Source: Raillietiella orientalis (lineage: Eukaryota). Taken from it: 64,000 nucleotides of DNA. A program made the translations under genes and the position numbers. The stretch covers positions 1 to 64,000 of the forward strand of contig JAYWIR010000143.1 of NCBI GenBank assembly GCA_036172245.1, written 5' to 3'. The notes beneath the pieces were generated by a model. That model made no database searches. It saw nothing but the letters and a program-made list of their open reading frames with translations, and was not told where the DNA came from. Shown in pieces: positions 2,198 through 35,293 of the stretch (its first letter is position 1; each line of letters starts with the position of its first letter).

Positions 2198-2709
2198 CGC
2201 TGAATCCCTTGGCGAGTGGACGTGGTTTTCCTCCGCTCCCGAGTGAGTCGACAGGAAGCGGTTTTTTCTTGGTGTGTGTTCGTGTGGAACATCGTTGGTG
2301 TCCGATGGCAGCGATGCCTGAGGACACCAACGATGAGACAGGCGTGCTCTGCTTAACAGTCCCACGAGAGGGAAGTCATCCAGCACGCAGTACTATTCTT
2401 GCGGAGAGCTGCCCGATGGCCCCATCTGGGAAGTATGCGGACAGACCTCGAGGGCTTCCTTCGAAGGATGGGCCCTCCTCACAGCTTCCGGTGATCCCCT
2501 CCCTACCCTCCACACTCTTTTTTTTTGGTTCATCTCTTTTATTTTTCTTTTTGTTTTTTCCGCATCCCCTTTCGCTGTCGGGGAGTGCCACACCGGGCTG
2601 CGTCCCGGTGTCCCGACAGGTTGCGTGTCTAAGGCCGCAGTGGGGCCTTATATCACGAATTATAGAGAGTTTTTTCTAAATAAACGCCCCGGGCGTACCC
2701 GGGTGGCAA
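2198..2709 (+). mobile_element. Mini non-autonomous LINE derivative K (5' UTR + 30-nt inverted ORF2 piece + 3' end)
   Basis: 2217-2335 resembles the 5' end of J (61797-61914); 2334-2363 is identical to 20520-20549; 2364-2709 is homologous to the 3' end of A (1861-2197). Confidence 0.8.
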
Positions 2710-3598
2710 CACCAAACCCGGCAGGCATGAGGTTCATAGGGAACTCGTCGCAAAACTCCCGGACCGAGCTCTTGTAGCGGTTCCAGTCCTGAAGCGTCTG
2801 CAAGCTGAAACCTCGTATGAATCCGCGGAGATGCTCCTCGGCTTCCGGAAGTTTCAGCCAGTCCCCCGGTAAGCGCCACGCAGATGACGGCGGACCCCTA
2901 TCTCGTGGGCGCACCTCGAGTACGATCTGGTCATGGTCCGACAGTTCCGAAGGTAACTTGCCGCGCCTGCCCACGCGTGAGCATAGGTGCTGGTTAAGAA
3001 ACACGTGATCTATGCTGTGGGCCATTTTCGGATCTCCCGCGAACAAGTTGCGCGTGTGCATCTCTGCGCACAGTTCGTTCACGCGGTCCCGAAGTGTGTC
3101 GGACGTACCTGACAGCAGGCGAAGGTTAAAGTCACCTGCGATTAGGATCGCTTTGCGCACTCCCACTTCGTACAGATATTCGCGCCTCAGGGTAAGAAAA
3201 AAATCTCTCCTTGCCTTTGTCCTTAGCGCGTCGCTGCCGCTTGGGGCGTACACGTTGGTAATGACCACATCGATATAGTCGGACCACCTGATGGTCAACT
3301 GACCGACGCGACCGGCACTATCGAACCGTACGCCCTTTGCCGCAGCCTCGACAGCTGGACGAAGCACGAACGCGACACCGCAAGATTTAACGGTGCCGCA
3401 ATGCCACATCAGCCGTCCACCCGAGATACGCTCGATTTCCGTTGCTTGGTCTGCGGAGATCACGTGGATCTCTTGCAGCAGCACCAGGTCGAACGATGCC
3501 AGGGTGGAGGTCACGTCTCGTCTCTTGCCGTCGTCGCTTAGCCCGTTGACGTTCCAACAAGCAATTCGCAGACGGCGGCAAGAGGCGATTCCCGGCAT
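2710..3598 (-). pseudogene. APE-type endonuclease domain of B ORF2, truncated by K
   Basis: WNVNGL, LLQEIH, NVYAP, AGDFN, IDHVF and SDHD motifs. Confidence 0.9.
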
Positions 3599-3985
3599 TA
3601 AGACTAGGAACGTGGCGTTGCAGCACCTGTCAAGGGACAGGTGCGAGGGACGAGTAAGGGGACTGCGGCCATCTCAGGCACTTGAAGCACCTGGAGCACA
3701 GCCTCTAACCTGTCTTTTCCTCCGGGGTCGCAGCGTGATGTTACCTCTCGAGGAGAGTCCCTGGAGTTCCCCACTTTCTTCGCACGCTCGCTTCCCTCAA
3801 TTATCTCTCCCTTTTCCACGAACGGGATAATTTTTCGGGTAGCCTTCTTCGGGCGACTGGCCTTCGGGTGGGAGGCTGCGATGCCGCAGGATATGTTTTC
3901 CGCCTCTGCGTCAGAGTTCGAAATCTCCGACTTCTTGACCGAGGTCGAACGCCTTAAGGCCCTTTACGCGGATTTGGGCGGATGC

Positions 3986-3999
3986 TGCAAGGACGCAGC
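3986..3999. repeat. Left copy of a degenerate 14-bp TSD of the C array (right copy 35294-35307)
   Basis: tgcaaggacgcagc vs tgcaacgacgctgc, 12/14 identical; the flanks rejoin into one minus-strand ORF1 (..KKC[S/C]V[V/L]AASAQIRVK..). Confidence 0.7.
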
Positions 4000-4053
4000 G
4001 AGCTCCTCCGCTGCTCGCTCCAAGGAGACGTCGTCGAGCATGCGTTCGACGAC
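4000..4053 (+). mobile_element. Extreme 5' tip of a C-family leader (probably of C3, separated by the C1/C2 insertions)
   Basis: cgctccaaggagacgtcgtc..gacgac matches 59658-59695 of C4, where it continues into sequence found at 15663 onward. Confidence 0.65.
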
Positions 4054-4142
4054 AACGCTGGCACGGACGTGTTCTGTGTTGCTCCACGAGCGTGATTCCT
4101 TTCCGTCTTCTTGTGTGTGGTGTGCCCGGGTCGTCCACTGGG

Positions 4143-6086
4143 ATGTCCACGGAGCCCCTGCAGCAAAAGATGGATGTGGAGGCTGCTACTGGCAGTGGAG
4201 ACTCTACTCCAGATGTCCGGTCCGCCTCTGATTCTTGTGTCTCACCATCGGCGAGAAGCTTCGCCGCCGTCGTCAAGGCGGCGGCAGCCAGCGGAGCAAC
4301 GCCCGACGAAGCGGAGCTGCAGGCATATGCAGCCCATGGCTACAAGCCTGCGCTCTGCTATCCGGTGAGTGCTGCGATCTCCGACGGGGTCGGAGAAAAT
4401 TTCTGGGACGAGCTTTTGCGCGTCAGGGTCCGACAGGACGACCTCCTGGCCGTCATGACGGTTAACGCGCTCGGACACTGGGAGGTGCACTGCAAAGAGG
4501 CATCCCTAGTCCAGCGCCTTCTCCGCACCCCGCTAAATATCCGCGGGAAAAAGGTCGTCCCGTCGGCCATGGACCAGTCGTTCGTGGTCCGATTATCCGC
4601 CGTCCAGGTGGACACGCCCGATCGCGTGCTCGTTGCTGCACTAAGTGCATTCGCCAAGGTGCACGCGCTGTGGAAAGCCGAAAATCCGATCAAAAGGATT
4701 GCATCTCTCCACAGCGGACTTGCCATGGCGCGTGTCACCATGGCGGATAGGAGGCAAATGCCTCCGCACTTGCAGGTGGGCGATGCGATCGTCCACCTTA
4801 AATTTGCCGGTCAGCGACCGGCTTGCGGCATTTGCGGTGCCGAGGGCCACCGTCCGTGGACGTGCCCTTCACGCAACTGCCGCTATTGTAAACAGCTCGG
4901 CCATTCCATCAAAGAGTGCGCCGAGCTAAAGAGAAAGAGGCAGGAGAAAAGCCGCCAACAATCGACCGCGTCCGCGCCGAAAAGATCCCCCGTTGTGCCA
5001 CGGGAGAAATCGGGCGCGAAGGGCGGGGCATCTTCGAGTGGAGGTCCCGCGAAAAAGGGCGCTGTTGCTTCAGGAGAGCCACCATCCCAGACAACCGCGC
5101 AGACGGGAAAGATGCCACGTCGCCCTGGGGGCAAATCGCCATCTTCGAAGCAGCCTAAGAGTGCGAGCACGCACTCAATCAAGGCTGCTTAACCGTCCGC
5201 GTCCGCTTGCGCGTCCAGCGGAGCACACGCGAAACCGTGCGCGGGTACCCTCGGAGCTGCCTCTGAACGGCAGTCTCCTCCTACGGCGGTGGAGATCACG
5301 TCATCCACTCCGAAGGCACGGGCAGCGAAGGCTCCAATAGCGCCTCGCGGGACGACGGCAATGACCGCCGTTTCGCCCGCATCGGCTAAGGAGCAGGTGC
5401 AGTGCGTAACTGGGACGGAGCCGTCTACCGCCGCAAGCGCGAAACGTTAGCCGGCATCTCCGGCCAAACAATTGAGGGAGGCGTCGGCCTCCCTGGAGAG
5501 CGTCCCCGACGCGGGCTGGACTCGACTCTCCAGGACGCCCACAAAGGGGAAGAAGAAGGTTGACCCTTCAATATTCCCCATCCTTAAGGTGGGTGGGAGG
5601 CAAAAGAGAAGCACGCCGAAGAAGGTGCGTACCCAGGTACGCACTACACCTGCGTGCTCTGTCTATGTCGCTTCGCGCGAGAGGGCGGCTGCGGAAGCCA
5701 AAGCTCCGGAAGCTGCGTTGGCGACTGCGACGAACCCCGCGCTGGCAGGGCAAGCGTCCACCTGCCGAAACAAAAAGAGACTGGCAAAACGCCAGTCTCG
5801 CGCCAGGCACTCGGACTCCGAGGTGGAGTCCGAGTGCAAACAAATGGAGCGCGCATCCCGGGGAAAGCCGGTAGCGCGCCGGGCTAAACTGCGAAAGCAC
5901 GAGCCTGTTGCCGAAGGCGGTTCCGGCTCCTGCATGGAGACCGAGGCGATGATCCTCGGCTCCCAGGACTCAGCTGGGAGCGATGTGGCGGCGAACGGGA
6001 GCGATTCCGCTTCCCAATCCGCTCTCCTACCAGCTGACTTCTCGCCGGACGGGGGGAGGAGCACGCCGTCATGTCCGCAGCAGTGA
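4143..6086 (+). pseudogene. C1 ORF1, Gag-like nucleic-acid-binding protein (647 codons, two CCHC knuckles), two nonsense mutations
   Basis: CGICGAEGHRPWTC and CRYCKQLGHSIKEC; TAA 5190 and TAG 5448 are sense codons in C2/C3. Confidence 0.9.
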
Positions 6087-9000
6087 TGCGTGGACTCCCG
6101 TCCGCTCGCCGCGTCAGCGTGGCCTGTTGGAATGTCAACGGGCTACGTGATGCTGACAAAAGGCGGACGGTAGCCAACGCTTTGCGCGCGTTCGATCTGG
6201 TGCTGCTGCAGGAGATACATAGCATCTCCGTACGGCAGGCATCGGATCTGGAAGAGCGCGCGGGCGGGACGCTACACTGGCGGCAAGGCTCCGCGCACAC
6301 GTGCGGAGTCGCGTTCCTCGTCCGAGGCAGGGTGGCGGAGGCGGTGCGGGACGTTTCTTTCGACGAGGAAGGTCGTGTGGGCCAACTTGTCCTCAAGTGG
6401 TCCGAATCGATCGACCTGGTCGATACGAACATCTACGCGCCGAGCGGCGGCCGGCATTACGCCCAGCGACTTGCATTCCTGGGTGGCCTGCGCAGCCGCT
6501 GGCTCGCTGACTCCGGCCCTAAAGTGGCGCACCTCCTTGCAGGAGACTTCAACGTCCACCTGCTAACAGAGGAGAGATGCCGCTTGAGGGAGAAGCAACT
6601 GGTGAGCGAGGTATGCGCGTCCGTGCGCGTGCAAAACTTGCTTGCTGGTGAGCCCGGGATGGAGACATCGCCGGACCATGCGTTCCTCGATGAACACCTG
6701 CTCTCACGAGTAGGTCGGAGAGGGCGCCTGCTGTCCGTGATTTCGGATCATCCGAGACTGAAGTTCGAGCTCCTCCCGCCTGGCAAAGGGCCTCCGATGA
6801 ATGTCTGGAGGTTGCCGGCCGACTGGCTCAGCAATTCGGAGGCGGCGGAGCATCTCCTCCAACACCTCCGGGGCTTCGCCATTTGTGATCTCGAGGACTG
6901 CGACGATCTGAAAAGATCGGTCCGCGAGTTCTGCTGCCGGTTCCTCTTGCATCTGCTTTTCCGCGGCTTCGGGGAGGGTGTCGCGAAAAGCAGATCCTAT
7001 CTCAAGGCGCGTACCTTCTCTCGATGCCCGGACGTCCGGCGTCTGGCGGAGTACAAGGCCAGGGCCGAGCGCCAGGTTTGGCAGTCTGGAGCGGCTTGTC
7101 TGCTTGATGACGCTGGCCAGGAATGCTCGGCTGCAGCCGAAGTACACCGCGTAGTCAAGCGCTACTACTCCTCTTTGTACGTGGAGGAGCCCACGGAACG
7201 CAGTCTCTCCGAGCTGCTTCTTCCGACGGGCAACCCTGCTATCGACGAGAAGGAACGCGCCAGATTGAGTTGACCCTTCACGGCGGAAGAACTATCCTCT
7301 GCCATAGCGGGCCTGAAGAGGCGTAAGGCGCCTGGGGAGGATGGCCTGCCCGCGGAGTTCTTTCAGTGCTTCGCGGCGGAGCTCGTCCCCCTGGTGCTCA
7401 GCCTTTTCTCGCTGATGCGTGAGACGGGAGATGTTCCCGCTTCTTTCCGCTCAGCAAAGGTGCGGCTCCTGCCGAAAGGCGGTGATTTGCGCCACCTCAG
7501 CAACTGGCGTCCGATCACATCGGTGAATTCGGACGTCAAGTTGTTCTCCAGGCTATGGGTCGCGCGCCTGGGGAGAATCGCGAAGTCCTTGGTAAGTCCG
7601 GAGCAGACGTATGCTGTTCCGGGGCGGTCCATGGACGCGAATCTCTTCTTCGCGCGAACATGGCTCAAGTTGTAGCAGCGCGTGGCGCAGCAGAGCCAGG
7701 CAGCCGAAATCGCCGCTGCCAAAGGAAAGCGGCGGTGTTCAAGGCACGATGGAACGCCGGGAGCCTTAGCGGTAACCGTCGATCTCTGCAAAGCGTTCGA
7801 CAGCGTAAACCAGGACCTCCTTCTGGAGCTTCTGGGACGCCTAGGCCTCCCGACGCACCTCATCGCCTACTTGCGCTCCTGCTGGTGTCACGCGTTATGC
7901 TGTATCTCTTTCAGCGGGCGTCACGTGTACGATGTTCCCATACGCCGGGGTATCAGGCAGGGAGACAGCTTAAGCCCCCTGCTCTTCAGCATCTTTTTTG
8001 AGTTGGTGCTAAGGGCGTACAGGCTTACGCTGGCCGACCTGCCGAGCTCCTGCCCGGGAACACCAGCCGTGGCCGCCTCTGCTGACGACCTTCTCCTGCT
8101 GCTGCCCATGTCCACCCCGGCGTCCAGGCTCGAGGACTTCTTCGAGCTCATTCGTCGGGGAGCGGGCCTGAGCGTGAACAGGACGAAATCAACCGTTGTA
8201 CCGGTTGGCTCTACGTGGGAGAAGCAGTCCGACTGGATCCGCCTGGGGATCCCCACGGGCAGGTGCTTGAAGTACCTCGGCGTTCCCTTGGGCGCCTTCT
8301 GTCCAGCAGAAGCGTGGTCGGACTGCCTTCACAAGGCCGAGACTGCTCTGGGCCCGTTCGAAGGCGGCAGGTATCTCCTGTCGGAACAAGCCTTCGTGTG
8401 CAACATTTTCGTTGTCCCCCTCCTCCGTCCCCTCTTTTTTGTTTGTCCCCCTCCCTACTGGGCTAAGCGCCGGGCGCAACGCCTGTTGCGTAACGCCCTG
8501 TGGGGACCGGCGAGGTCCAGGATACGCCTGAAGGACTTGGCGGCTCCTCGGCGGGATGCAGGATTGGGCATCCTGACGCTGGAGCGGATCGGACTGCTAG
8601 TGCAGTTCCGCATGCTGGCGCTTTGGGCGCAGCTCTGGACTACTCCCTGGTGTGCTCCAGCGCGGCTGCTGCTGTAACGCTGCACGGGTGGCGACGGACT
8701 ACGTTCGTTGCATCTGCGCACGGAGCGCGCCCAGAGAGGATTCGGCTTCCCTTTGAAGCAGCTCGCCACGCTTCTGGGAAAGCATGAGTGGATCTCCTGC
8801 CGGCCGACGAACTTCAACGCCTGGAGGCAGGAAGCCTTATCGTCCTGGGCAGCGCAACAGGATGTGTCCCGTTTGGAACTCCGTTGCGTGAAACTTTCCC
8901 CATACTGTCCAGTGGGGGAGGTGCTGGAAGACCAGGACCAGTGGACACGCCTAGGCGCTACGCCACTCGCCGAAGCACTGTGTGCACTGATGGTGCGAGA

Positions 9001-9650
9001 TGACAGTGACCTGCCGGCGAGGTGGGAGATCACTTGCGAAATCGCAGGCGAAACCCGACTGCTGGGCGGCTGGAGGACTTGCGAAGTGGCAGACGCTGCC
9101 ACACCTCGCATTCTTGCAAAGGGGCTTCTCCGGTGGAGTGAGCTCCTCGGGGTGCCCACCGATGAACTTGTGGTCCCTTCTGCGTGTTTGGACACGACTC
9201 TCTTCCCCCTTCGGTGGAAGCAGGACGCTTTTCTGCTGGTGCATAGGGGTTTGTACTGCAACCAGCGGACGCACCTGATTTCCGGGGGAGTTGCGTCCCC
9301 GAACTGTGTCAAATGCGGAGCGGTGGAATCGTTTCCGCATTTGCTGTTTGAGTGCGGTGCCCTCCAGGGGCTGTGGCAGCGGCTGTCTTCAGCGCTCCTG
9401 TAGCTTGGACACAGCTCACTGGATTGGATGCGCCGCTTCTACATCCGTGGCGGACTTTCTCTTGAAGCGGTCGTCGCAATCATCTGCTGCGTCCGCGCCA
9501 TTGTCAGGGCCCGCCACGTATCGCAGATGCGAGGAGTCCCAACATCGGTCCCCCGACACCGCAGCCTGCAACCTGCAAATGGCTGCTGGGTGGCCACATC
9601 TTGGAGCAGAAGTGAGGACGGAGATCGGCGGCATTCACCGCCGGTTCTGA
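6086..9650 (+). pseudogene. C1 ORF2 (APE-RT-Cys/His finger), disrupted
   Basis: WNVNGL, GDFN, NWRPI, DLCKAFD, RQGDSLSP, YADD mutated to SADD, CVKCGAVESFPHLLFEC; stops at 7271, 7673, 8675 and 9401. Confidence 0.92.
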
Positions 9651-9950
9651 GAATAGGAACGGGTAGACAGTATACCCTTGTCCCCGCCCTCCCACTCAGT
9701 TTATTTATTTATTGTCCCAGCCCCTCCCGTTCCGAACTCTCAGTGTGCCCGGACTGCGTTTAGGGAAATCTACTCCCCATTTTCTGTTCCCCTTGCCTGG
9801 GAACACAGTTCCCAGTTGATATTATACTAAACGTCCCGGCGCAACCGGGTAATAAACGACAACGGCCGCACGGACGTGTTCTGTGTTGCTCCACGAGCGT
9901 GATTCGTTTCCGTCTTTTTGTGTGTGGTGTGCCCGAGTGCATCCACTGGG

Positions 9951-11893
9951 ATGTCCACGGAGCCCCTGCAGCAAAAGATGGATGTGGAGGCTGCTACTGG
10001 CAGTTGAGACTCTACTCCAGATGTCCGGTCCGCCTCTGATTCTTGTGTCTCGCCACCGGCGAGAAGCTTCGCCGCCGTCGTCAAGGCGGCGGCAGCCAAC
10101 GGAGCACCGCCCGACGAAGCGGAGCTGCAGGTATATGCAGCTCATGGCTACAAGCCTGCGCTCTGCTATCCGGTGAGTGCTGCGATCTCCGACGGGGTCG
10201 GGAAAACCTTTGGGATGAGCTTTTGAGCGTTGGGGTCCGACAGGACGACCTGCTGGCCGTCATGCCGGTAAACGCGCTCGGACACTGGGAGGTGCACTGC
10301 AAAGAGGCATCCCTAGTCCAGCGCCTTCTCCGAACCCCGCTAAATATCCGCGGGAAGGAGGTCGTCCCGTCGGCCATGGACCAGTCGTTCGTGGTCCGAA
10401 TGTCCGCCGTCCAGGTGGACACTTCCGATCGCGTGCTCGTCGCTGCACTTAATGCATTCGCCACGGTGCACGCGCTGTGGAGAGCAGACAATCCGATCAA
10501 AAGGATTGCATCTCTCAACAGCGGACTTGCCATGGCGCGTGTCACCATGGCGGATAGGAGGCAAATGCCTCCGCACTTGCAGGTGGGCGATGCGATCGTC
10601 CACCTTAAATTTGCCGGTCAGCGACCGGCTTGCGGCATTTGCGGTGCAGAGGGCCACCGTCCGTGGACGTGCCCTTCGCGCAACTGCCGCTATTGTAAAC
10701 AGCTCGGCCACTCCATCAAAGAGTGCGCCGAGCTGAAGAGAAAGCGGCAGGCGAAAAGCCGCCAACAATCGACCCCGTCCGCGCCGAAAAGATCCCCCGT
10801 TGTGCCACGGGAGAAATTGGGCGCGAAGGGCGGGGCATCTTCGAGTGGCGGTCCCGCGAAAAAGGGCGCGGTTGCTTTAGGGAAGCCACCATCCCAGACA
10901 GCCGCGCAGACGGGAAAGATGCCACGTCGCCCTGGGGGCAAATCGCCCCCTTCGAAGCAGCCTAAGAGTGCGGGCACGCACTCAATCAAGGCTGCTGAAC
11001 CGTCCGCGTCCGCTTGCGCGTCCAGCGGAGCACACGGGAAACCGTGCGCGGGTACCCTCGGAGCTGCCTCTGAACGGCAGTTTCCTCCTACGGCGGTGGA
11101 GATCACTTCATCCACGCCGAAGGCACGGGCAGCGAAGGCTGCAATAGCGCCTCGCGGGACGACGGCAATGACCGCCGTTTCGCCCGCATCGGCTAAGGAG
11201 CAGGTGCAGTGCGTAACGGGGACGGAGCCGTCTCCCGCCGCGAGCGCGAAACGTGATCCGGCATCTCCGGCCAAACAATTGAGGGAGGCGTCGGCCTCCC
11301 AGGAGGGCGTCCCCGACGCGGGTTGGACTCGAGTCTCCAGGACGCCCACAAAGGGGAAGAAGAAGGTTGACCCTTCAATATTCCCCATCCTTAAGGTGGG
11401 TGGGAGGCAAAAGAGAAGCACGGCGAAGAAGGTGCGTACCCAGGTACGCACTACGGCTGCGTGCTCTGTCTCTGTCGCTTCGCGCGAGAGAGCGGCTGCG
11501 GAAGCCAAAGCTCCGGAAGCTGCGTTGGCGACTGCGACAACTTCCTCGCGGGCAGGGCAAGCCTCCACCTGCCGAAACAAAAAGAGACTGGCAAAACGTC
11601 AGTCTCGCGCCAGGTACTCGGAATCCGAGGTGGAGTCCGAGTGCAAACAAATGGGGCGCGCATCCCGGGGTAAGCCGGTAGCGCGCCGGGCTAAAGTGCG
11701 AAAGCACGATCCTGTTGCCGGATGCGGTTCCGGTTCCTGCACGGAGACCGAGGCGATGATCCTCGGCTCTTAGGACTCAGCTGGGCGCGATGTGGCGGCG
11801 AAATGGAGCGATTCCGCTTCCCAATCCGCTCTCCTACCAGCTGACTTCTCGCCGGACTGGGCGAGGAGCACGCCGTCATGTCCGCAGCAGTGA
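9951..11893 (+). pseudogene. C2 ORF1, frameshift near 10200 and stop at 11771
   Basis: Homology to C1 ORF1 (ORF 10043..11773). Confidence 0.9.
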
Positions 11894-14800
11894 TGCGTGG
11901 ACTCGCGTCCGCTCGTCGAGTCAGCGTGGCCTGTTGGAATGTCAACGGGCTACGTGATGCTGACAAAAGTCGGATGGTTGCCAACGCTTTGCGCGCGTTC
12001 GATCTGGTGCTGCTGCAGGAGATACATAGCATCTCCAAACTGCAGGCATCGGATCTGGAAGAGTGCGCGGGCGGGACGCTACACTGGCGGCAAGGCTCCG
12101 CCCACACGTGTGGAGTCGCGTTCCTCGTCCGAGGCAGGGTGGCGGAGACGGTGCGGAACGTTTGTTTCGACGAGGAAGGTCGTGTGGGCCAACTTGTCCT
12201 CAAGTGGTCCGAATCGATCGACCTGTTCGTTACGAACATCTACGCGCAGAGCGGCGACCGGCATTACGCCCTGCGACTTGCATTCCTGGGTGGCCTGCGC
12301 AGCCGCTGGCTCGCTGACTCCGGCCCTAACGTGGCGCACCTCCTTGCAGGAGACTTCAACGTCCACCTGCTAACTGAGGAGAAATGCCGCTTGAGGGAGA
12401 AGCAACTGGTGAGCGAGGTATGCGCGTCCGTGCGCGTGCAAAACTTGCTTGCTGGTGAGCCCGGGATGGAGAGATCGCCGGACCATGCGTTCCTCGATGA
12501 ACACCTGCTCTCACGAGTAGGTCGGAGAGGGCGCCTGCTGTCCGCGATTTCGAATCATCCGAGACTGGAGTTCGAGCTCCTCCCGCCTGGCAAAGGGCCT
12601 CCGATGAATGTCTGGAGGTTGCCGGCCGACTGGCTTAGCAATTCGGAGGCGGCGGAGCATCTTCGCCAACACATCCGGGGCTTCGCCATCCTGAACTCGA
12701 GGACTGGGACGATCTGAAAAGATCGGTCCGCGAGTTCTGCTGCCGGTTCCCCTTGCACCTGCTTCCCCGCGGCTTCGGGGAGGGTGTCGCGAACAGCAGA
12801 TCCTATCTGCAGGCGCGTACCTTCTCCCGATGCCCGGACGTCCGGCGTCTGGCGGAGTACAAGGCCAGGGCCGAGCGCCAGGTTTGGCAGTCTGGAGCGG
12901 CTTGTCTGCTCGATGACGCTGGCCAGGAATGCTCGGCTGCAGCCGAAGTACACCGCGTAGTCAAGCGCTACTACTCCTCGTTGTTCTCGGAGGAGCCCAC
13001 AGAACGCAGTCTCTCCGAGCTGCTTCTCCCGACGGGTAACCCTGCTATCGACGAGGAGGAACGCGCCAGATTGGATTGGCCCTTCACGGCTGAAGAAGTA
13101 TCTTCTGCCATAGCGGGCCTGAAGAGGCGTAAGGCGCCTGGGGAGGATGGCCTGCCCGCGGAGTTCTTTCAGTGCTTCGCGGCGGAGCTCGTCCCCCTCT
13201 TGCTAAGCCTTTCCTCGCTGATGCGTGAGACGGGAGATGTTCCCGCTTCTTTCCGCTCAGCAAAGGTGCGGCTCCTGCCGAAAGGCGGTGATTTGCGCCA
13301 CCTCAGCAACTGGCGTCCGATCACATCGGTGAATTCGGACGTCAAGTTGTTCTCCAGGCTATGGGTCGCGCGCCTGGGGAGAATCGCGAAGTCCTTGGTA
13401 AGTCCGGAGCAGACGTATGCTGTTCCGGGGCGGTCCATGGACGCGAATCTCTTCTTCGCGCGAACATGGCTCAAGTTGTAGCAGCGCGTGGCGCAGCAGA
13501 GCCAGGCAGCCGAAATCGCCGCTGCCAAAGGAAAGCGGCGGTGTTCAAGGCACGATGGAACGCCGGGAGCCTTAGCGGTAACCGTCGATCTCTGCAAAGC
13601 GTTCGACAGCGTAAACCAGGACCTCCTTCTGGAGCTTCTGGGACGCCTAGGCCTCCCGACGCACCTCATCGCCTACTTGCGCTCCTGCTGGTGTCACGCG
13701 TTATGCTGTATCTCTTTCAGCGGGCGTCACGTGTACGATGTTCCCATACGCCGGGGTATCAGGCAGGGAGACAGCTTAAGCCCCCTGCTCTTCAGCATCT
13801 TTTTTGAGTTGGTGCTAAGGGCGTACAGGCTTACGCTGGCCGACCTGCCGAGCTCCTGCCCGGGAACACCAGCCGTGGCCGCCTCTGCTGACGACCTTCT
13901 CCTGCTGCTGCCCATGTCCACCCCGGCGTCCAGGCTCGAGGACTTCTTCGAGCTCATTCGTCGGGGAGCGGGCCTGAGCGTGAACAGGACGAAATCAACC
14001 GTTGTACCGGTTGGCTCTACGTGGGAGAAGCAGTCCGACTGGATCCGCCTGGGGATCCCCACGGGCAGGTGCTTGAAGTACCTCGGCGTTCCCTTGGGCG
14101 CCTTCTGTCCAGCAGAAGCGTGGTCGGACTGCCTTCACAAGGCCGAGACTGCTCTGGGCCCGTTCGAAGGCGGCAGGTATCTCCTGTCGGAACAAGCCTT
14201 CGTGTGCAACATTTTCGTTGTCCCCCTCCTCCGTCCCCTCTTTTTTGTTTGTCCCCCTCCCTACTGGGCTAAGCGCCGGGCGCAACGCCTGTTGCGTAAC
14301 GCCCTGTGGGGACCGGCGAGGTCCAGGATACGCCTGAAGGACTTGGCGGCTCCTCGGCGGGATGCAGGATTGGGCATCCTGACGCTGGAGAGGATCGGAC
14401 TGCTAGTGCAGTTCCGCATGCTGGCACTTTGTGCGCAGCTCTGGACTACTTCCTGGTGTGCTCCATCGCGGCTGCTGCTACGGCGCTGAACGGGTGGCGA
14501 CGGACTACGTTCGTTGCATCTGCGCACGGAGCGCGTCCAGAAAGGATTCGGCTGCCCCCTGAAGCAGCTCGCCACGCTTCTGGGAAAGTATGAGTGGATC
14601 TCTTGCCGGCCGACGAACTTCAACGCCTGGAGGCAGGAAGCCTTATCGTCCTGGGCAGCGCAACAGGATGTGTCCCGTTTGGAACTCCGTTGCGTGAAAC
14701 TTTCCCCATACTGTCCAGTGGGGGAGGTGCTGGAAGACCAGGACCAGTGGACACGCCTAGCCGCTACGCCACTCGCCGAAGCACTGTGTGCACTGATGGT

Positions 14801-15455
14801 GCGAGATGACAGTGACCTGCCGGCGAGGTGGGAGATCACCTGCGAAATTGCAGGCGAAACCCGACTTCTGGGCGGATGGCGGACTTGCGAAGTGGCAGAC
14901 GCTACCACACCTCGCATTCTTGCAAAGGGGCTTCTCCGTTGAAGTGAGCTCCTCGGGGTGCCCACCGATGAACTTGTGGTCCTTTCTGCGTGTTTGGACA
15001 CGACTCTCTTCCCCCTTCGGTGGAAGCAGGACGCTTTTCTGCTGGTGCACTGGGGTTTGTACTGCAACCAGCGGGCGCACCTGATTTCCGGGGGAGTAGC
15101 GTCCCCGAACTGTGCCAAATGCGGAGCGGTGGAATCGCTTCCGCATTTGCTGTTTTGGTGCGGTGCCCTCCAGGAGCTGTGGCAGCGGCTGTCTTCAGCG
15201 CTCCTGCACCCTGGACACACCGCACTGGATTGGATGAGCCGCTTCTACACGCGTGTCGGACTTTCTCTTGGAGCGGTCGTCGCAATCATCTGCTGCGTCC
15301 GCGCCATTGTCAGGGCCCGCCACGTATTGCAGATGCGAGCAGTCCCAACATCGGTCCCCGAGACCGCAGCATGCAACCTGGAAATGGCTGCCGGGTGGCC
15401 ACATCTTGGAGCAGAAGTGAGGACGGAGATCGGCGGCATTCACCGCCGGTTCTGA
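11893..15455 (+). pseudogene. C2 ORF2 (APE-RT-Cys/His finger), disrupted
   Basis: ORFs 11878..12717, 12753..13481, 13488..14489, 14514..14942 and 14958..15455. Confidence 0.92.
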
Positions 15456-15661
15456 GAATAGGAACGGGTAGACAGTATACCCTTGTCCCCGCCCTCCCAC
15501 TCAGTTTATTTATTTATTGTCCCAGCCCCTCCCGTTCCGAACTCTCAGTGTGCCCGGACTGCGTTTAGGGAAATCTACTCCCCATTTTCTGTTCCCCTTG
15601 CCTGGGAACACAGTTCCCAGTTGATATTATACTAAACGTCCCGGCGCAACCGGGTAATAAA

Positions 15662-18600
15662 ACGGACGCCAACGCCGGCTCGCTCCCCTTTCTGTTGAAA
15701 GAGTCATCAGAGGGAGAAGTAGCGGCGAGTTCTTTTTCGCAGCGGTCGGGAATACGCTCGACGACAACGGCCGCACGGACGTGTTCTGCGTTGCTCCTCG
15801 AGCGTGATTCCTTTCCGTCTTGTTGTGTGTGGTGTGCCCGAGTGCGTCCACTGGGATGTCCACGAAGCCACTGCAGCAAAAGATGGATGTGGAGGCTGCT
15901 ACTGGCAGTGGAGACTCTACTCCAGATGTCCGCTCCGCCTCTGATTCTGTCTCGCCACCGGCGAGAAGCTTCGCCGCCGTCGTCAAGGCGGCGGCAGCCA
16001 ACGGAGCACCGGCCGAATAAGCGGAGCTGCAGGCATATGCAGCCCATGGCTACATGCTTGCGCTTTGCTATCCGGTGAGTGCTGCGATCTCCGACGGGGT
16101 CGGAGAAAATCTATGGGATGAGCTTTTGCGTGTCGGGTTCCGACAGGACGACCTCCTGGCCGTCATGCCGGTTAACGCGCACGGACACTGGGAGGTGCCC
16201 TGCAAAGAGGCATCCCTAGTCCAGCGCCTTCTCCGAACCACGCTGTATATCCGCGGGAAGGAGGTCGTCCTGTCGGCCATGAACCAGTCGTTCGTGGCCC
16301 GATTGTGCGCCGTCCAGGTGGATATGCCCGATCGCGTGCTCGTCGCTGCACTTAGTGCATTCGCCACGGTGCACGTGCTGTGAAGAGCAGACAATCCGAT
16401 CAAAAGGATTGCATCTCTCCACAGCGGAATTGCCATGGCGCGTGTCACCATGGCGGATAGGAGGCAAATGCCTCCTCACTTGCAGGTGGGCGATGCGATC
16501 GTCCACTTTAAATTGGCCGGTCAGAGACCTGCTTGCGGCATTTGCGGTGCAGAGATCCACCGTCCGTGGACGTGCCCTTCACGCAACTGCCGCTGTTGTA
16601 AACTCCATTGCTCGGTTAACTTATCAAAAAGTGCGCCCAGCAGAAGAGAAAGCCGCAGGCGAAAAGCCGCCAACAATCTCCCCGTCCGCGCCGAAAACAT
16701 CCCCCGTTGTGCCAGAAGAGAAATCGGGCGCGATGGGCGGGGCATCTTCGAGAGGCGATCCCGAGAAAAAGGGCGTGGTTGCTTCAGGGAAGCTACCATC
16801 CCAGACAGCCGCGCAGACGGGAAAGATGCCACCTGGCCCTGGGGGCAAATCGCTCCCTTCGAAGCAGCCTAAGAGTGCGCGCACGCACTCAATTAAGGCT
16901 GCTGAACCGTCCGCGTCCGCTTGCGCGTATAACGGTGCACACGGGAAACCGTGCGCGGGTACCCTTGGAACTGCCTCTGAACGGCAGTCTCCTCCTAAGG
17001 CGGTGGAGATCACGTCTTCCACGCTGAAGGCACGAGCAGCGAAGGCTCCAATAGCGCCTCGTGGGACGACGGCAATGACCGCCGTTTCGCCCGCATCGCC
17101 TTAGGAGTAGGTACAATGCGTAACAGGGACGGAGCCGTCTCCCGCCGCGAGCGAGAAACGTGAGCCGGCATCTCAGGCCAAGCAATTGAGGGAGGCGTCG
17201 GCCTCCAAGGATGGCGTCCTCGACGCGGGCTGGAATAGCGTCTCCAGGACGCTTACAAAGGAGAAGAAGAAGGTTGACCCTTCGATATTCTCCATTCTTC
17301 AGGTGGGTGGGAGGCAAAAGAGGAGCACGCCGAAGAAGGTGCGTACGCAGGTACGCACTACGTCTGCGTGCTGTGTCTCCGTCGCTTCGCGCGAGAGGGC
17401 GGCTGCGGAAGCCAAAGCTCCGGAAGCTGCGTTGGCGACTGCGACGACCCCCTTGCGGGCAGGGCAAGCCTCCACCTGCCGAAACAAAAAGAGACCAGCA
17501 AAACACCAGTCTCGCGCCAGGCACCCGGATTCCGAGGTGGAGTCCAAGTGCAAACAAATGGAGCGCGCATCCCGGGGTAAGCCGGTAGCGCGTCGGCCTA
17601 AAGTGCGAAGGCACGAGCCTGTTGCCGGAGGCGGTTGCGGCTCCTGCATGGAGACCGAGGCGATGATCCTCGGCTCCCAGGACTCAGCTGGGCGCGATGT
17701 GGTGGCGAACGGGAGCGATTCCGCTTCCCAATCCACCTTCATACCAGCTGACTTCTCGCCGGACGGGGCGAGGAGCACGCCGTCATGTCCGGAGCAGTGA
17801 TGCGAAGACTCGCGTCCGCTCGTCGTGTCAGCGTGGCCTGTTGGAATGTCAACGGGCTACGTGATGCTGACAAAAGGCGGACGGTAGCCAACGCTTTGCT
17901 CGCGTTCGATCTGGTGCTGCTGCAGGAGATACATAGCATCTCCGAACGGCAGGCATCGGATCTGGAAGAGCGCGCGGGCGGGACGGTACACAGGCGGCAA
18001 CGCTCCGCGCACACGTGCGGAGTCGCGTTCCTCGTCCGATGCAAGGTGGCGGAGGCGGTGCGGAACGTTTGTTTCGACGAGGAAGGTCGTGTTGGCCAAC
18101 TTGTCCTCAAGTGTTCCGAATCGATCGACCTGGTCGTTACGAACATCTACGCGCGGCGCGGCGGCCGGCATTACGCCCAGCGACTTGCATTCCTGTGTGG
18201 CCTGCGCAGCCGCTCGCTCGCTGACTCTGGCCCTAACGTGGCGCACCTCCTTGCAGGAGACTTCAACGTCCACCTGCTAACAGAGGAGAGATTTCACTTG
18301 AGTGAGAAGCAACTGGTGAGCGAGGTATGCGCATCCGTGCGCGTGCAAATCTTGCTTGCTAATGAGCCCGGGATGGAGAGATCGCCGGACCATGCGTTCC
18401 TCGATGAACTCCTGCTCTCACGAGTAGGTCGTAGAGGGCGCCTGCTGTCCTCGATTTCAAATCATCCGTGACTGGAGTTCGAGCTCCTCCCGCCTGGCAA
18501 AGGGCCTCCGATGAATGTCTGGAGGTTGCCGGCCGACTGGCTTAGCAATTCGGAGGCGGCGGGGCATCTTCACCAACACCGCCGGGGCTTCGCCATCCGT

Positions 18601-18856
18601 AAACTCGAGGAATGAGACGATCTCGAAAGATCGGTCCGCGAGTTCTGCTGCCGGTTCCCCTTGCACCTGCTTCTTTGCGGCTTCGGAGAGGGTGTCGGTA
18701 ACAGCAGATCCTATCTGCAGGCGCGTACCTTCTCCCGATGCCCCGACGTTCGGCGTCTGGCGGAGTACAAGGCCAGGGCCGAGCGCCAGGTTTGCAGTCT
18801 GGAGCGGATTGCCTGCTCGATGACGCTGGCCAGGAATGCTCGGTTGCAGCCGAAGT
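15662..18856 (+). mobile_element. LINE C3 segment 1 (5' UTR, ORF1, APE), interrupted by F+G
   Basis: Homology to C1; TGATG at 17798-17802; breaks after gccgaagt. Confidence 0.9.
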
Positions 18857-19871
18857 TTGTCACCCAGATATGCCGGTGCATAGCTCCTGTACCGAGTATC
18901 TTTCCTGCTGCGCGACTTTTGTCGGAGCCGACGGCTGATCCCCTTTTGTGGGGTTTATCACTATTTTTGCCTTCCCTTCCTTCTTTTGCGGAAGTTCCGG
19001 CGTTGGAGCGACGTTCATCGGGCACACCACTTTGGTGTGGCCCTTCGCGCCGCACGTTGGGCAAACTGCGTCCGGGCACTGCTTTTTCAAATTCCCGAAC
19101 GACTTACAGTTTCCACAAAATTCAGGTTTCCCCACAAACCAAATGTCGACGAACTCGTCGCCAATTTGGAGCTTGTGGGGAAGCTGTACGCTTTCTCGAA
19201 GCGTCACGTGCGCGCCTACTCGCCCACTAAATGCATTGTTCACTCCGAAGGTGTTGGGCTTTCTCCACATCGCGAAAACGCTTGCGAAATTTTCCAGTTC
19301 AGCGCGGATGGCGTTCTCATCCATCCGCACTGTTGTCCCTGTTAGGTGGACCACAATGGAGTGGTCCACCGTGTGTGGGAGTTAATTCCTGCCCTCAAAT
19401 TGTACGGGCGTGCAGAGCATCTTGTGGGTAAGAGCTGCATCCTTGCAGATGAGCTCCGCCAACTGCCCTCCGCTCCGTATAGAGAGGCAAAGAATTTCCT
19501 GGTCGGCAATGCTTATTTTTTGATGGCATTGCCGAACTTTCGCGCCCTTAACGGGGAATATAAATTGCCTACCTTGTACAGGAGGGCCGGATTGTAGCCC
19601 TCCTGGATGTAGGATTGGATTTCGGCGGCGACATCGGGCGTTTCTGCCGCTGCCACCACGCTCCGGGCCCTCGCCGTAGTGGCGGGTTCAGAAGAAGTGG
19701 TGAAGCGTGATCCCCCCTCCTATGGCTCGGGAGACGCGGTCTTCCCGCCTCATTCACCTCAAACTGCGGCGTTCACAGGCATTTCTGCCTGTCAACGGCC
19801 GCGAAACACACACGAAACACCAGAAAAGAAAAACTCCCTATCCACGGAGCGCACAACAATTGCGTCCGCCG
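18857..19871 (-). mobile_element. ORF1-only LINE derivative F (5' UTR + ORF1 5' part + terminal hairpin)
   Basis: CGNCKSFGNLKKQC and CPTCGAKGHTKVVC knuckles; ATG at 19782; ends directly in ccggcatatctgggtgacaa. Confidence 0.8.
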
Positions 19872-21050
19872 TTTGCCACCCGGATATGCCGGGGCATTTA
19901 TTATTCTAATTTTTTACAAAAATCAGAAAATAAAGTCTTTCAAAAGTTAATTGTGGGAAACACTTGCTTTTCCCACCTTGGTTGAGGTGTCTGTTGCCGG
20001 TGCATAGACCAATTAGGTCCATTCCCGAGGAGCATGGGGAGAAAAAACTTGAACAAAAATAAACAAAAAGAGAGATAACGGGGAGGGAAACAGTTGTATG
20101 GGGAGAGAAGGGGGCAGGGAAGGGATCACTGGGCGCCTGGGTCGGTCCTCCGCATCCTGTTCAGGATGCAGTCAAGTTCTGTTTTAACTCTGAAAGGTAG
20201 ACGCCACCTTGTCGCCGTCTCTAAAGAGATCGTCGTCCAGTGGATGGCGTCCCTGCATCTTGGGCCTCTTCTTCTGGCGTGCCACCTTTGCACAATGCCG
20301 CGTACGCAGCAGAGGACTGCTAGAGACGCAGCGGGGCGCAGGCCGTCACGCAGAAAGAGGAGACGGTAAATTTCTCCAGGGTCGCCTACTGGAAGATGTA
20401 GGATTGGGGCGATTGGACTCCAGAGTCCATCCAGGGCGACACACTCGAGGGTGAGATGCGGGAAGGTTTCTCTTTCTCCGCACTCGACACAGCGGGCATC
20501 CACATTTACCAGTGTCCAGTGAGACAGGCGTGCTCTGCTTAACAGTCCCCAGTGCAGGAATAGCAACGCCGTCTTCTGCCACTTCAACGGAAGTGTGCCG
20601 CAATACCAACACGCTGGGAGCCACTTCACCTCCTCCGGAGGTATTGCAAGCAGCTTTCCCCAGCGCGCAAGTCCGTGAGGCGGGACGCTCGGGGTGGCAG
20701 CGTCCGTGAGCTCTTGAGTCGTCCACGCCTTCAAAGGTTTTTTCCTGCCTCGGATAAGGCAGGACTCTCCCGACGATTCCAGCTCGTTGCTGCTCCTACG
20801 GTTTTTCAGGGAGGACAGATCGGGGGCAAGGGGACTGAAAAAAGTCCACAGAAATTTCCGGGGCGTGTTGATAATATCCTGCAGCGGCTGTCGAGCGTAC
20901 GGTCCTCGTCGTAGGCAGTTGTATTCCGCCTCGCTCTTGCCGTTGATCTTAGCCCACGCGGAAGCTGACTCCTGAAGCCAGGCAGTGCAGTTCGCGGAAA
21001 GGCAGGAGATCCAATTATTCTCCCTCATCAGGGCGAATTTTTCTTCCGTT
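19872..21050 (-). mobile_element. 5'-truncated LINE G (ORF2 C-terminus + 3' UTR)
   Basis: ORF 20126..21028 with CVECGERETFPHLTLEC; terminal aataaatgccccggcatatccgggtggcaaa. Confidence 0.88.
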
Positions 21051-21064
21051 CGCCGCCTCCGAAG

Positions 21065-21326
21065 GCGCTACTACTCCTCTTAGTACTCGGAGGAGCCCAC
21101 GCAACGCAGTCTCTCCGAGCCGCTTCTTCCGACGGGCAACCCTGCTATGGACGAAGAGGAACACGCCAGATTGGATTTGGCCTTCACGGCGGAAGAAGTA
21201 TTTCCCGCCATAGCGGGCCTGAAGAGGCGTAGGGCGGCTGGGGAGGATGGCCTGCCCGCGAAGTTATTTCAGTGCTTCGCGGCGGAGCTCGTTCCCCTAG
21301 TGCTAAGCCTTTTCTCGCTGATGCGT
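21065..21326 (+). mobile_element. LINE C3 segment 2 (ORF2 linker)
   Basis: Resumes ~15 nt downstream of the break at 18856 (RYYSS..EEPT); ends at TSD tcgctgatgcgt. Confidence 0.85.
21315..21326. repeat. 12-bp TSD of element D (second copy 32849-32860)
   Basis: tcgctgatgcgt is exact on both sides and present once in C1/C2 at the homologous site. Confidence 0.9.
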
Positions 21327-32848: not shown

Positions 32849-35293
32849 TCGCTGATGCGTGAGACGGGAGATGTTCCCGCTTCTTTCCGCTCAGCACAGG
32901 TGCGGCTCCTACCGAAAGGCGGTGATTTTCGCCACCTCAGCAGCTGGCGTCCGATCACCTTGGTCAATTCGGACGTCAAGTTGTTCTCCAAGCTATGGGT
33001 CGCGCGCCTGGGGAGAATCGCGGAGACCTTGGTAAGTCCGGAGCAGACGTATGCTGTTCCGGGGCGGTCCATGGACGCGAATCTCTTCTTCGCGCGAACA
33101 TGGTTCGAGTTGGAGCAGCGCGTGGCGCAGCAGAGCCAGGCAGCCGAAATTACCGCTTCCAAAGGTAAGCGGCGGTGTTCAAGGCACGATGGAACGCCTG
33201 GAGCCTTAGCGGTCGCCGTTGATCTCTGCAAAGCGTTCGACAGCGTAAACCAGGACCTCCTTCTTGAGCTTCTGAGACGCCTAGGCCTCCCGACGCACCT
33301 CATCGCCTACTTGCGCTCCTGCTGGCGCCAGGCGTTATGCTGTATCTCTTTCAGGGGCCGCCACGTGTACGGTATTCCCATACGGCGGGGTATCAGGCAG
33401 GGAGACAGCTTAAGCCCCTTGCTCTTCAGCATCTTCTTTGAGTTGGTGCTGAGGGCGTACAGGCTGACGCTTGCCAACCTGTAGTGCTCCTGCTTGGGAA
33501 CTCCGGCCGTGGCCGCCTATCGTGACTACCTTTTCCTGCTGCTGCCCATGTGCACCCCGGCGTGCAGACGCGAAAACTTCTTCGAGCTTATTCGTCGGGG
33601 AGCGGGCCTGAGCGTCAAGAGGACAAGATCTATCTTTGTACTGGTTGTCTCTACGAGAGGGGGCAGTCCTACAGGAAGCGCCTAATGATCCCAACATGCA
33701 GCTGCTCCAATTACCTTGGCGTTTAATTGGGCGCTTTCTGTCAAGCAGAAGCGTGGACGGTATGTATTCACATGGCCGAGACTGCTCTGGGCCCGTTTTC
33801 AGGCGGCAGTCTCGTCCTGTCGGACAGGGCCCAGAGCAGTCTGTGAAACATCTTCGCCTGAAACATTTTTGTTGCTTCTATCCTTTGTCACCTATTTTTT
33901 TGTTTATGTTCTCCCTACTCAGTTAGCGTCGGGCAAAACTCCTCTTGCGATACGCATTTTGGAGACCGGCGAAGTCCAGTATCCGCCTGAAGGACTAAAC
34001 GGCTCCTCGAGGGGTGCAGGATTCGGCATCCTGACCCTGCAGCAGATCGGACTTCTAGTGCAGTTTTGCATGCTGGCACTGTGCGCCCAGCTATGGACCT
34101 GGTCTGCTCCAGCGCGGCTGTTGCTGCGGCGCTGCACGGATGGTCACGGACTTTTTTCGCTGTACCTGCGCACGGAGCGCGTTCGCGAGGATTCGGCTTC
34201 CCTGTGAAGCAGCTCGCCTCACTTCTGGGAAAGCATACTTGTATCTCCTGCCTGCCGACGAGAATCAATGCCTGGAGGCAGGAAGCCTTATCGTCCTGGG
34301 CAGTGCAAAAGGATTTGTCCCGTTTTTAACTCCGTCGTGTGAAGCTTTCCCCATACTGCCCAGTGGGGGAGGTGCTCAAGGACCAGGACCAGTGGATATG
34401 CCTAGCCGCTAAGCATCTTGGAGTAGCACAGTCTGCACTGATGGTGCGACACGACAGTGCCCTACCGGCGAGGTGGGAGGTCTCTTGCCGAATCGTAGAC
34501 GAAACACGACTGCTGGGCGCCTGGAGGAATCGCAAGCTGCCAGACGCTGCCACGCCTCTCATTCGTGCCAAGGGACTTCTCCTGTGGAGTGAGCTCCTAG
34601 GGGTGCCTACCGATGAACTTGTGGTCCCTTCTGCATGTTTGGACGCGACTCTCTTCCCCCTTCGCTGTAAACAGGACACTTTTCTGCTGGTGCATTAGTG
34701 TTTGTACTGCAACTAGCGGGGGCACCTGATTTCCAGTGGAGTTGCGTCCCCGAACTGTGCCAAATGCGGAGCGGTGGAATCGCTTCCGCATTTGCTGTTT
34801 GGATGCGGTGCCCACCAGGAGCTGTGGCGGCGGCTGTGTTCAGGTCTCCTGCACCTCGGACGCACAGCAATGGATTGGATGCGCCGCTTCTTCACGCGTG
34901 GTGGTCTTTCTCTTTGAGCGGTGGTTTCATTTATCTGATGCGTCCGCGCCATTGTCAAGGCCTGCCACGTATCCGAGTGGTCCCAACATCTGTCCCGACA
35001 CTGCATCCTGCAACCTGCAAATGTCTTGCGGGTGGCCCCACCTTAGAGCAGAAGTAAGGACGGTGATTGGCGGCATTCACAGTCGGATCTGAGAATAGAA
35101 ACTCCTGGACAGCGGTAACCTATCTCCTCCCTATCACCTTATTTATTTATTTATTGTCCCCCTTCTCCCGTTCCGAACTCTCAGTGTGCCTGGCCTGCAT
35201 GTTGGGAACCCTACTGCGCATCTTGTGTTCCCCTTGCCAGGGAAGGCAGTTCCCAGATGACATTACTGAACGTCCCGGCGCAACCGGGTAATA
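32849..35293 (+). mobile_element. LINE C3 segment 3 (RT to 3' end), more decayed than C1/C2
   Basis: Homology to 7409-9855; terminal cgtcccggcgcaaccgggtaata. Confidence 0.9.

Follow-up and report, generated by a model that had tools for sequence, protein, structure and literature searches.

A tandem array of an L1-group LINE in Raillietiella orientalis, probably grown by re-insertion at a duplicated target within a sister LINE

Overview and proposed history

The window analysed here comprises 64,000 nucleotides of Raillietiella orientalis DNA (assembly GCA_036172245.1, contig JAYWIR010000143.1, positions 1 to 64,000, forward strand) and contains three same-strand copies, C1 to C3, of a long interspersed nuclear element (LINE) which we call C. 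They form an array of the order T1 flank - C1 - ACGACAACG - C2 - T2 spacer - ACGACAACG - C3 (Table 1), where T1 and T2 are subfamilies of a second LINE family, T, with two insertion sites for C, named A and B, in its first open reading frame (ORF1). On balance we think it probable, if by no means certain, that the array results from site-specific insertions of C, re-insertion at a duplicated target, and recombination between T1 and T2 hosts. An earlier note, made from the sequence alone, had already located the three copies and the 9-bp bracket ACGACAACG at 4049 and 9856, which recurs at 15761 before C3; its description of a head-to-tail trimer does not hold, because about 100 bp of host DNA lie between C2 and C3.

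According to our model, C3, the oldest of the three copies, would have entered first, at site B of a T2 element. The host would have become a T1/T2 chimera through a crossover in a 17-base block at site A, either before or after the entry of C2. C2 would have inserted into the T1-type site A, its 5' end bringing AACG, presumably from its RNA, and turning ACGAC into ACGACAACG. The left junction would have kept the upstream CGTTCG and would still have been a target, so that C1 may have entered in the same burst, duplicating 9 bases. Finally, gene conversion may later have homogenised two blocks that are now identical in C1 and C2.

Identity of element C

C1 and C2 are 96.2% identical over 5.8 kb, and C3 is about 92% identical to each; all three carry stops. 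ORF1 of C is separate from ORF2 and encodes two CCHC knuckles, and a Pfam scan of it gave zero matches. ORF2 encodes an APE endonuclease (PF03372) followed by a reverse transcriptase (RT; PF00078), as matched in pieces of C1 and in a 917-aa frame from a further copy, and ends in a CX2CX7HX4C motif, where the Pfam match to zf-RVT is weak (E 0.019, below the cut-off). The 3' terminus of the element is GGGTAATAA. Compared with solved structures, a set in which APE clades other than L1 are barely represented, the RT is nearest to human L1 ORF2p (E 3e-38), with R2 at E 5e-13. A protein homologue search with C returned 13 relatives, zero of them classified to a clade; the best was 56% identical and the others 22-27%. 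Judged by this architecture, C is to be classed as an APE-type retrotransposon without long terminal repeats (non-LTR), of the L1 group. Own-genome searches with two end regions of C, the first of which also included host sequence, gave 454 and 439 first-look candidates, 40 of each being scored; these figures are not copy numbers.

Antisense LINE ends break C copies at a few fixed ORF positions, around 1,530, 3,085, 3,360 and 3,740 (loci L115/L180 on contig C10, L119 on C9, L109-L110 on C76, L121 on C70 and L122-L123 on C89).

The supposed leader is ORF1 of a second LINE

The earlier note took the segment 15662-15760 for the 5' leader of C. It is antisense coding DNA of T ORF1, not a 5' untranslated region of C. 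Left of C1, the minus strand reads through the end of an ORF1 into an APE domain. A search with 15662-15900 found 29 other loci; in all of them T ORF1 continues upstream of the segment, and nowhere among them was the segment detached from T2 upstream sequence. An empty-site pattern gave 14 matches; the 12 that were read all run through uninterrupted, without C, and the three empty T2 loci that were translated have an open frame through the segment that includes CSVVVER and ASVIDT. T1 and T2 share 66% identity across about 2.1 kb.

The note had further claimed that joining 4016-4053 to 15664 onward reproduces the leader of C4, a fourth copy in the window. The likeness is real, with 32 of 38 positions matching between 4016-4053 and 59658-59695 and 78 of 102, with 19 gap columns, between 15664-15769 and 59696-59812; 0 of 1000 shuffles reach either value. 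It is no reproduction, as the left part is T1-type, the right part T2-type, and the DNA upstream of C4 belongs to a third T subfamily, 76-77% identical to T2 over about 100 bases. The resemblance arises because this upstream DNA translates to the same ORF1 region.

Many T2 copies have a further fixed site in ORF1, at which the 5' end of another LINE lies about 80 bases upstream of site A (L004, L005, L009, L011, L021, L022, L024, L027, L098, L101, L102, L107).

Target site and junctions

We collected 55 distinct 5' junctions of C, a non-random sample enriched by the choice of loci. T2-like site B accounts for 37 of them and T1 site A for 5; 4 adjoin the 3' end of a C copy, and the remaining 9 lie elsewhere, mostly in T variants. 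A sixth filled T1 site carries an internally deleted C. By hand count, 28 of 48 3' junctions begin with ACGAC, 14 are one base off, and 6, including that of C2, are further off. Filled and empty sites together give the target consensus CG(C/T)TC(G/C)^ACGAC in T ORF1, mainly at T2 site B and sometimes at T1 site A. The insertion motif lies on the antisense strand of codons of the type S-V-V-V-E-R, and the endonuclease of C itself presumably reads it. The target site duplication (TSD) is 9 bases long at site B; at T1 site A it is 5, as seen in the one matched locus, on contig C26. A C occupies T1 site A at 6 loci; at T2 site A none was found in any of the 100 copies listed (153 counted). Counts from pattern searches are lower bounds: the search for filled T1 sites returned only that of the window and missed the known ones, and another missed a joint on contig C53.

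TCGACGAC, which it placed at the start of C2, stands at 4046 and 15758, before C1 and C3. The short start of C1, whose presence elsewhere it had named as speaking against its own model, does occur independently, on a T1 flank, at 5 other loci.

At G000:C207:25387-25421, a C 3' end is followed by T1 in sense direction near site A, and the motif is present on that strand too, which suggests that the orientation of C follows the motif. Identical junction sequences occur in locus pairs on different contigs or positions (L040/L041, L070/L071, L099/L100, L159/L160); these pairs are recent segmental duplicates or unmerged haplotypes.

The C1/C2 joint and the ages of the copies

The C1/C2 joint reads TAATAA-ACGACAACG-GCCGCACGG, so that the two copies are separated by a target duplication, as in three other C-C joints of the same register on contigs C31, C53 and C76; all four joints start at the nick register. 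The ~100 bp of host DNA between C2 and C3 set that junction apart from TSD-separated joints.

Ages were normalised to the regional median, with 41 pieces outside the window as reference. Outside the identical blocks, C1 and C2 each show 118 differences in 4,348 bases (normalised age 0.97 each). C3 differs from the family majority at 182 positions in ~3,080 bases, against 83 for C1 and 79 for C2 (Fisher p 4e-11, C2 vs C3). It is the most diverged of the three, as the earlier note had said, and with a normalised age of 2.51 it is 2.5 times older than C1 and C2. In all three other dimers the upstream copy is the younger one (1.15 vs 2.05, 1.19 vs 2.33 and 0.69/0.84 vs 1.13/1.24; in the dimers on contigs C31 and C53, different regions are compared after normalising). 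Newcomers are expected upstream, because only the left junction retains CGYTCS after an insertion. The serial insertion that the earlier note envisaged stands in so far as C3 came first and a newcomer lands at the 9-bp motif on the 5' tip of an older copy, as at the four joints and in the three graded dimers; its placement in a leader does not.

C1 and C2 are independent insertions. Outside the blocks they have 10 majority-deviating alleles in common in 4,348 bases, of which 0 are strictly private, and for this reason a local tandem duplication of one C is ruled out. A derivation of C1 from an unequal C2/C3 crossover is likewise ruled out: C1 is joined to C2 with no spacer, and no more than 2-3 alleles are strictly common with C3. 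The equal age of C1 and C2 fits two insertions in one burst and would also fit a template jump; in view of the register of the joint and of the other dimers, re-insertion at the 5' target duplication is the more likely.

Flanks from two host subfamilies

The left flank of the array is T1, with 88-91% identity to 6 empty T1 loci and 49-61% to 12 empty T2 loci, while the spacer right of C2 is T2, with 82-91% to T2 and 63-65% to T1. The outer flanks are thus not two halves of one target. As they derive from different host subfamilies, one added recombination is required, and serial insertion in one intact host is insufficient. At site A, T1 and T2 match in 16 of 17 bases, a block that is among the six best between them. 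The base after GGACGCC is A in the window, as in 13 of 14 T1 copies, and in 0 of 20 T2 copies (1 of 100 in a larger T2 list); T2 sequence follows directly after the block. GGACGCC follows a C end at three junctions; apart from that of the window, they are T1. The simplest mechanism would be that C2 entered a T1-type site A, that the host crossed to T2 within the 17-base block, and that the right duplication lost 2 bases. Joining 4053 to 15664 probably restores the locus as it was before the insertions, namely that of a T1/T2 chimeric host.

Among copies with both ends seen, a foreign right flank is found in 3 of 4 with T1 on the left (contigs C10 and C36 and the window; that on C26 matched) and in 0 of 9 with T2 on the left (post hoc Fisher p 0.014). 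This count is without contigs C9, C35 and C48, where the end was not reached or the host subfamily was unassignable; the right flanks of C90 and of the second locus on C53 were not found. The copy on C36 turns to old-subfamily alleles over its last 800 bases. Within the stretches fetched, no 5' half of a host C was seen left of T1 on C10, C36, C90, C26, C53 or C60.

Identical blocks in C1 and C2

Two blocks are identical in C1 and C2. The long one spans 1,177 bases and holds 21 alleles found in no other copy, the short one spans 267 bases with 6 such alleles; at the mismatch rate outside them, their chance per start position is ~1e-26 and 1e-6, respectively. One copy probably overwrote the other after mutations had accumulated, by gene conversion or as an effect of the assembly. 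A public contig identical to 13096-13457 extends from C2-specific bases into the long block and backs the C2 version only.

Possible 5' tags and return targeting

All six filled T1 sites carry AACG or GACG, and the empty ones do not. T2-type bases, reaching up to ~16 nt further upstream and lying within 20 nt of the site, precede C at 3 of the 6 filled T1 sites (L116 on C90, L035 on C53, L118 on C36) vs 0 of 17 empty ones (p 0.011, a small and post hoc sample). This suggests that the RNA of C may carry target-derived 5' sequence; recombination of T1 with T2 at similar motifs could leave the same patches. If the tags do come from the RNA, the arrival of C2 rebuilt the full site-B motif, and the newcomer lands on 9 target-derived bases at the 5' tip of the older copy.

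T1 in turn inserts back into ORF2 of C. Of the six loci found with a T1 5' end, four have it next to C-type ORF2 at one and the same site and a fifth at a related site; at L139 (C60) the contact is at about base 2,832 of C, and likewise near it at L046, L081 and L038. We tentatively hypothesize, with more doubt than confidence, that C and T1 form a closed two-family loop in which target-derived sequence at the 5' end of C RNA lets the complementary DNA (cDNA) pair with and overwrite the DNA upstream of weak sites, so that each full-length insertion would upgrade its own landing pad. In the strongest form of this idea, the 100-base T2 segment would have been present in full on the RNA of C3, and cDNA made from this RNA would have invaded a T1 site A, creating the chimeric host for C2 and C1.

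Weighing the alternatives

Several observations weigh against the history we prefer. Of the two regions that the copies of the C76 dimer have in common, only one shows a clear age gap (15 vs 17 of ~480; 17 vs 36 of 929), and the equal ages of C1 and C2 give no order for this pair. The T1-type A amounts to one base, the segment around it being ~9% diverged, and C2 lacks the expected ACGAC at its 3' junction, hence the extra 2-base loss for an entry into a T1 site. The search for an empty T1/T2 chimera elsewhere, which gives lower bounds, returned 0 matches. The array is also without read support: from one public read run (holding 0.20 of sampled words), 26 short contigs fall on 9600-16200, and none bridges a junction.

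A variant that keeps the re-insertion of C1 at C2 has the 3' part of C2 primed off-target at T2 site A, with a crossover inside C swapping in the T1-flanked 5' part. Crossovers within C are frequent, judging from the foreign right flanks, the late switch of the C36 copy and a similar one near 33450 in the piece starting at 32849; the copy on C60, where T1 lies within a C and the 3' half of that C terminates at T2, is of the precursor type. Nevertheless we think the variant unlikely, as it needs priming at T2 site A, for which neither the 100 listed T2 copies nor any other of the three matching junctions gives an example, leaves the T1-type A unexplained, and meets no age step along the length of C2. 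C1 and C2 could also stem from one event, the RT jumping from the 5' end of C2 RNA to the 3' end of C1 RNA, with the 9 bases as an RNA-borne tag instead of a target duplication. R2-type template jumping could yield equal-aged head-to-tail copies, and C1 and C2 are of equal age and from different sources; moreover, C 5' ends appear to bring ACGAC-AACG tags to T1 sites, so that a jump could mimic a TSD. It predicts neither an exact nick-register spacer nor age-graded dimers, however, and the four joints and the other three dimers make it improbable for C1/C2. For C2/C3 it is excluded by the 2.5-fold age gap and the host spacer.

It is highly improbable that the array is partly a product of the assembly, in which the identical blocks, or else the join of T1 to T2, would come from copies that were collapsed or mis-polished. 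At 67.6 kb the contig is short, it is built of repeats and has its junctions unbridged, and the next longest identical run among 267 piece pairs is 465 bases. Yet C1 and C2 differ by ~5% outside the blocks and have 62 and 66 private alleles, the public contig matches C2 without difference, the same joint occurs on three other contigs, and no locus fetched from elsewhere is at least 98.5% identical to the window over 250 bases. Hardly any credence is left for the model of the earlier note, in which newcomers insert into C's own 5' leader upstream of CGGACG and inherit it. Although the segment precedes C at most full-length copies and the join resembles the DNA upstream of C4, the segment is T ORF1 and is present without C, and the empty sites rule this model out. 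CGGACG as a landing cue is ruled out as well, as its distance varies (~15 bases after the end of C1, ~2 after that of C2) and the usual 3' flank of C is without the motif. Re-insertion at the rebuilt target remains our preferred reading; it predicts strong nicking at CGCTCG^ACGACAACG, medium at CGTTCG^ACGACGGAC, weak at TAATAA^ACGACAACG and none at T2 site A.

Feature positions and neighbouring insertions

Table 1. Features of the array and related C pieces in the window.
Feature	Position	Strand	Remarks
Host LINE T1: start of ORF2 (APE domain) and 3' part of ORF1	2710..4053	-	Cut at site A, in translation at codons ...S-V-V^ of ASVVERM; 91% to empty T1 loci L036 and L040 over 1,344 bases; PF03372 E 3e-14 at 2660-3670
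ACGACAACG, left copy	4049..4057	+	ACGAC is T1 target DNA; AACG is absent from empty T1 sites
C1	4058..9855	+	LINE of APE type, full-length but dead, with stops in both ORFs; 2.7% from family majority
Long C1/C2-identical block, 1,177 bp	7408..8584	+	Partner 13214-14390; 21 pair-private alleles
3'-terminal C1/C2-identical block, 267 bp	9588..9854	+	Partner 15393-15659; 6 private alleles
ACGACAACG at C1/C2 head-to-tail joint, target duplication	9856..9864	+	Register matches joints on C31, C53, C76 and ordinary 3' junctions
C2	9865..15660	+	Full-length, dead; 2.7% from family majority; two ORF1 CCHC knuckles; ORF2 with APE, RT and C-terminal CCHC
C2 3' junction, atypical (no ACGAC), and 17-base block common to T1 and T2	15661..15678	+	Likely T1-to-T2 crossover
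Supposed leader: T2 ORF1 coding segment, site A to site B	15662..15760	-	82-91% to 12 empty T2 loci
ACGACAACG at T2 site B, main C target	15761..15769	+	Antisense of CSVVVER
C3, 5' half	15770..18856	+	Antisense LINEs interrupt it at 18856; differs from the family majority by 5.9%
C3, continuation	21065..21326	+	Identical normalised age, 2.5
3' half of a C	32849..35293	+	~600 bases of C3-like age, then old subfamily from near 33450; different T flank after
C4	59650..61022	+	Old, 14.8% from majority; at site B of third T subfamily

The piece starting at 32849 is likely a continuation of C3. Inside C3, two minus-strand LINE pieces (18857-21064) stand head to tail near 19870, with a 2-base host GT between them; GT also flanks single insertions of this family in C, and the spacer fits re-insertion here as well. 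An inverted counterpart of this region, with the same joint (92.5% identity over 1.9 kb), lies just past the window end (L135, contig bases 64001-67618). A duplication of ~12 bases, TCGCTGATGCGT, at 21315-21326 and 32849-32860 stands on either side of 11.5 kb of insertions nested in ORF2 of C; its site is the start of the long C1/C2-identical block (7408), and other C copies are hit there too. Between the minus-strand element and the resumed C there is a non-C patch of 17-25 bases (GTTCGCCGCCTCCGAAG...), in the window at 21048-21064 and at L142:163-210, with 15 and ~100 bases of C missing at the two places; it may be a similar target-derived tag or a recombination scar. Near the contig start, direct repeats at the ends of another LINE (464-606, 1864-2705) comprise 70 bases at 97% and ~330 bases at 83%.

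Comparison with known systems

Tandem growth at a TSD and Tx1-type targeting of transposons are known, and the array is an ordinary outcome of site-specific insertion, target duplication and recombination in a nest of repeats. Less ordinary is the target, conserved ORF1 codons of a sister LINE that inserts back into ORF2 of C. Neither LINE-into-LINE-ORF1 targeting nor return targeting was found in literature searches aimed at it, which did not reach Repbase reports or most subscription journals. If this holds biochemically, gene-free LINE islands could grow from within, without a host-gene target, and such families would provide natural pairs of APE endonuclease and target for specificity studies.

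Tandem R1 copies in Drosophila ribosomal DNA (rDNA) are split by the TSD, an arrangement attributed to newcomers landing in the TSD that flanks an older copy on its 5' side (Stage and Eickbush 2009, PMC2718515). C resembles R1 in being an APE-type, site-specific non-LTR element with TSD-separated tandems (PMC2718515). It differs in its target, antisense ORF1 of a sister LINE instead of 28S rDNA, in a TSD of 5-9 bases or more vs 14, and in L1 ORF2p as nearest solved relative; with LINE ORF1 as its flanks, C does not fall into the R1 clade proper. Some transcripts of melanogaster-type R1 are proposed to hold 6-28 nt of upstream target, as seen at non-canonical sites (PMC2718515), and the 5' tags of C resemble this; if truly target-derived, they would be a second, independent case of that way of 5' end joining. 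For transposable element dimers in general, site preference together with a TSD that keeps the target gives head-to-tail dimers in a burst (McGurk and Barbash, 10.1101/158386). Unlike these double insertions, C appears to improve a weak site by adding target-like 5' bases.

In the Tx1 clade, transposons serve as targets: Tx1 inserts in Tx1D, Tx1-Mar and SINEU-3 in Mariner-N4_AMi, and Tx1-8_Crp and Tx1-4_AMi in LTR elements (Kojima 2015, PMC4494074), and the same TSD re-insertion model was given for the SINEU-3 tandems (PMC4494074). C is like these LINEs in its L1-group architecture, its mobile-element target, its TSD tandems and an orientation often opposite to the host (PMC4494074). Sequence-specific insertion with a TSD, a trait of that clade, is found in C. 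Unlike the targets named there (DNA transposons, LTR elements, small nuclear RNA genes and microsatellites), that of C is a LINE ORF1, and targeting runs both ways (PMC4494074). Finally, C shares the formation of nested LINE clusters with Zepp (Blanc et al. 2012, PMC3446292) and with Cnl1, which nests within its own copies (10.1101/2022.06.10.495668). As far as those sources describe them, Zepp and Cnl1 nest in their own family, Cnl1 in tandem, whereas C enters another family, mostly in antisense, and meets itself only at a rebuilt target.

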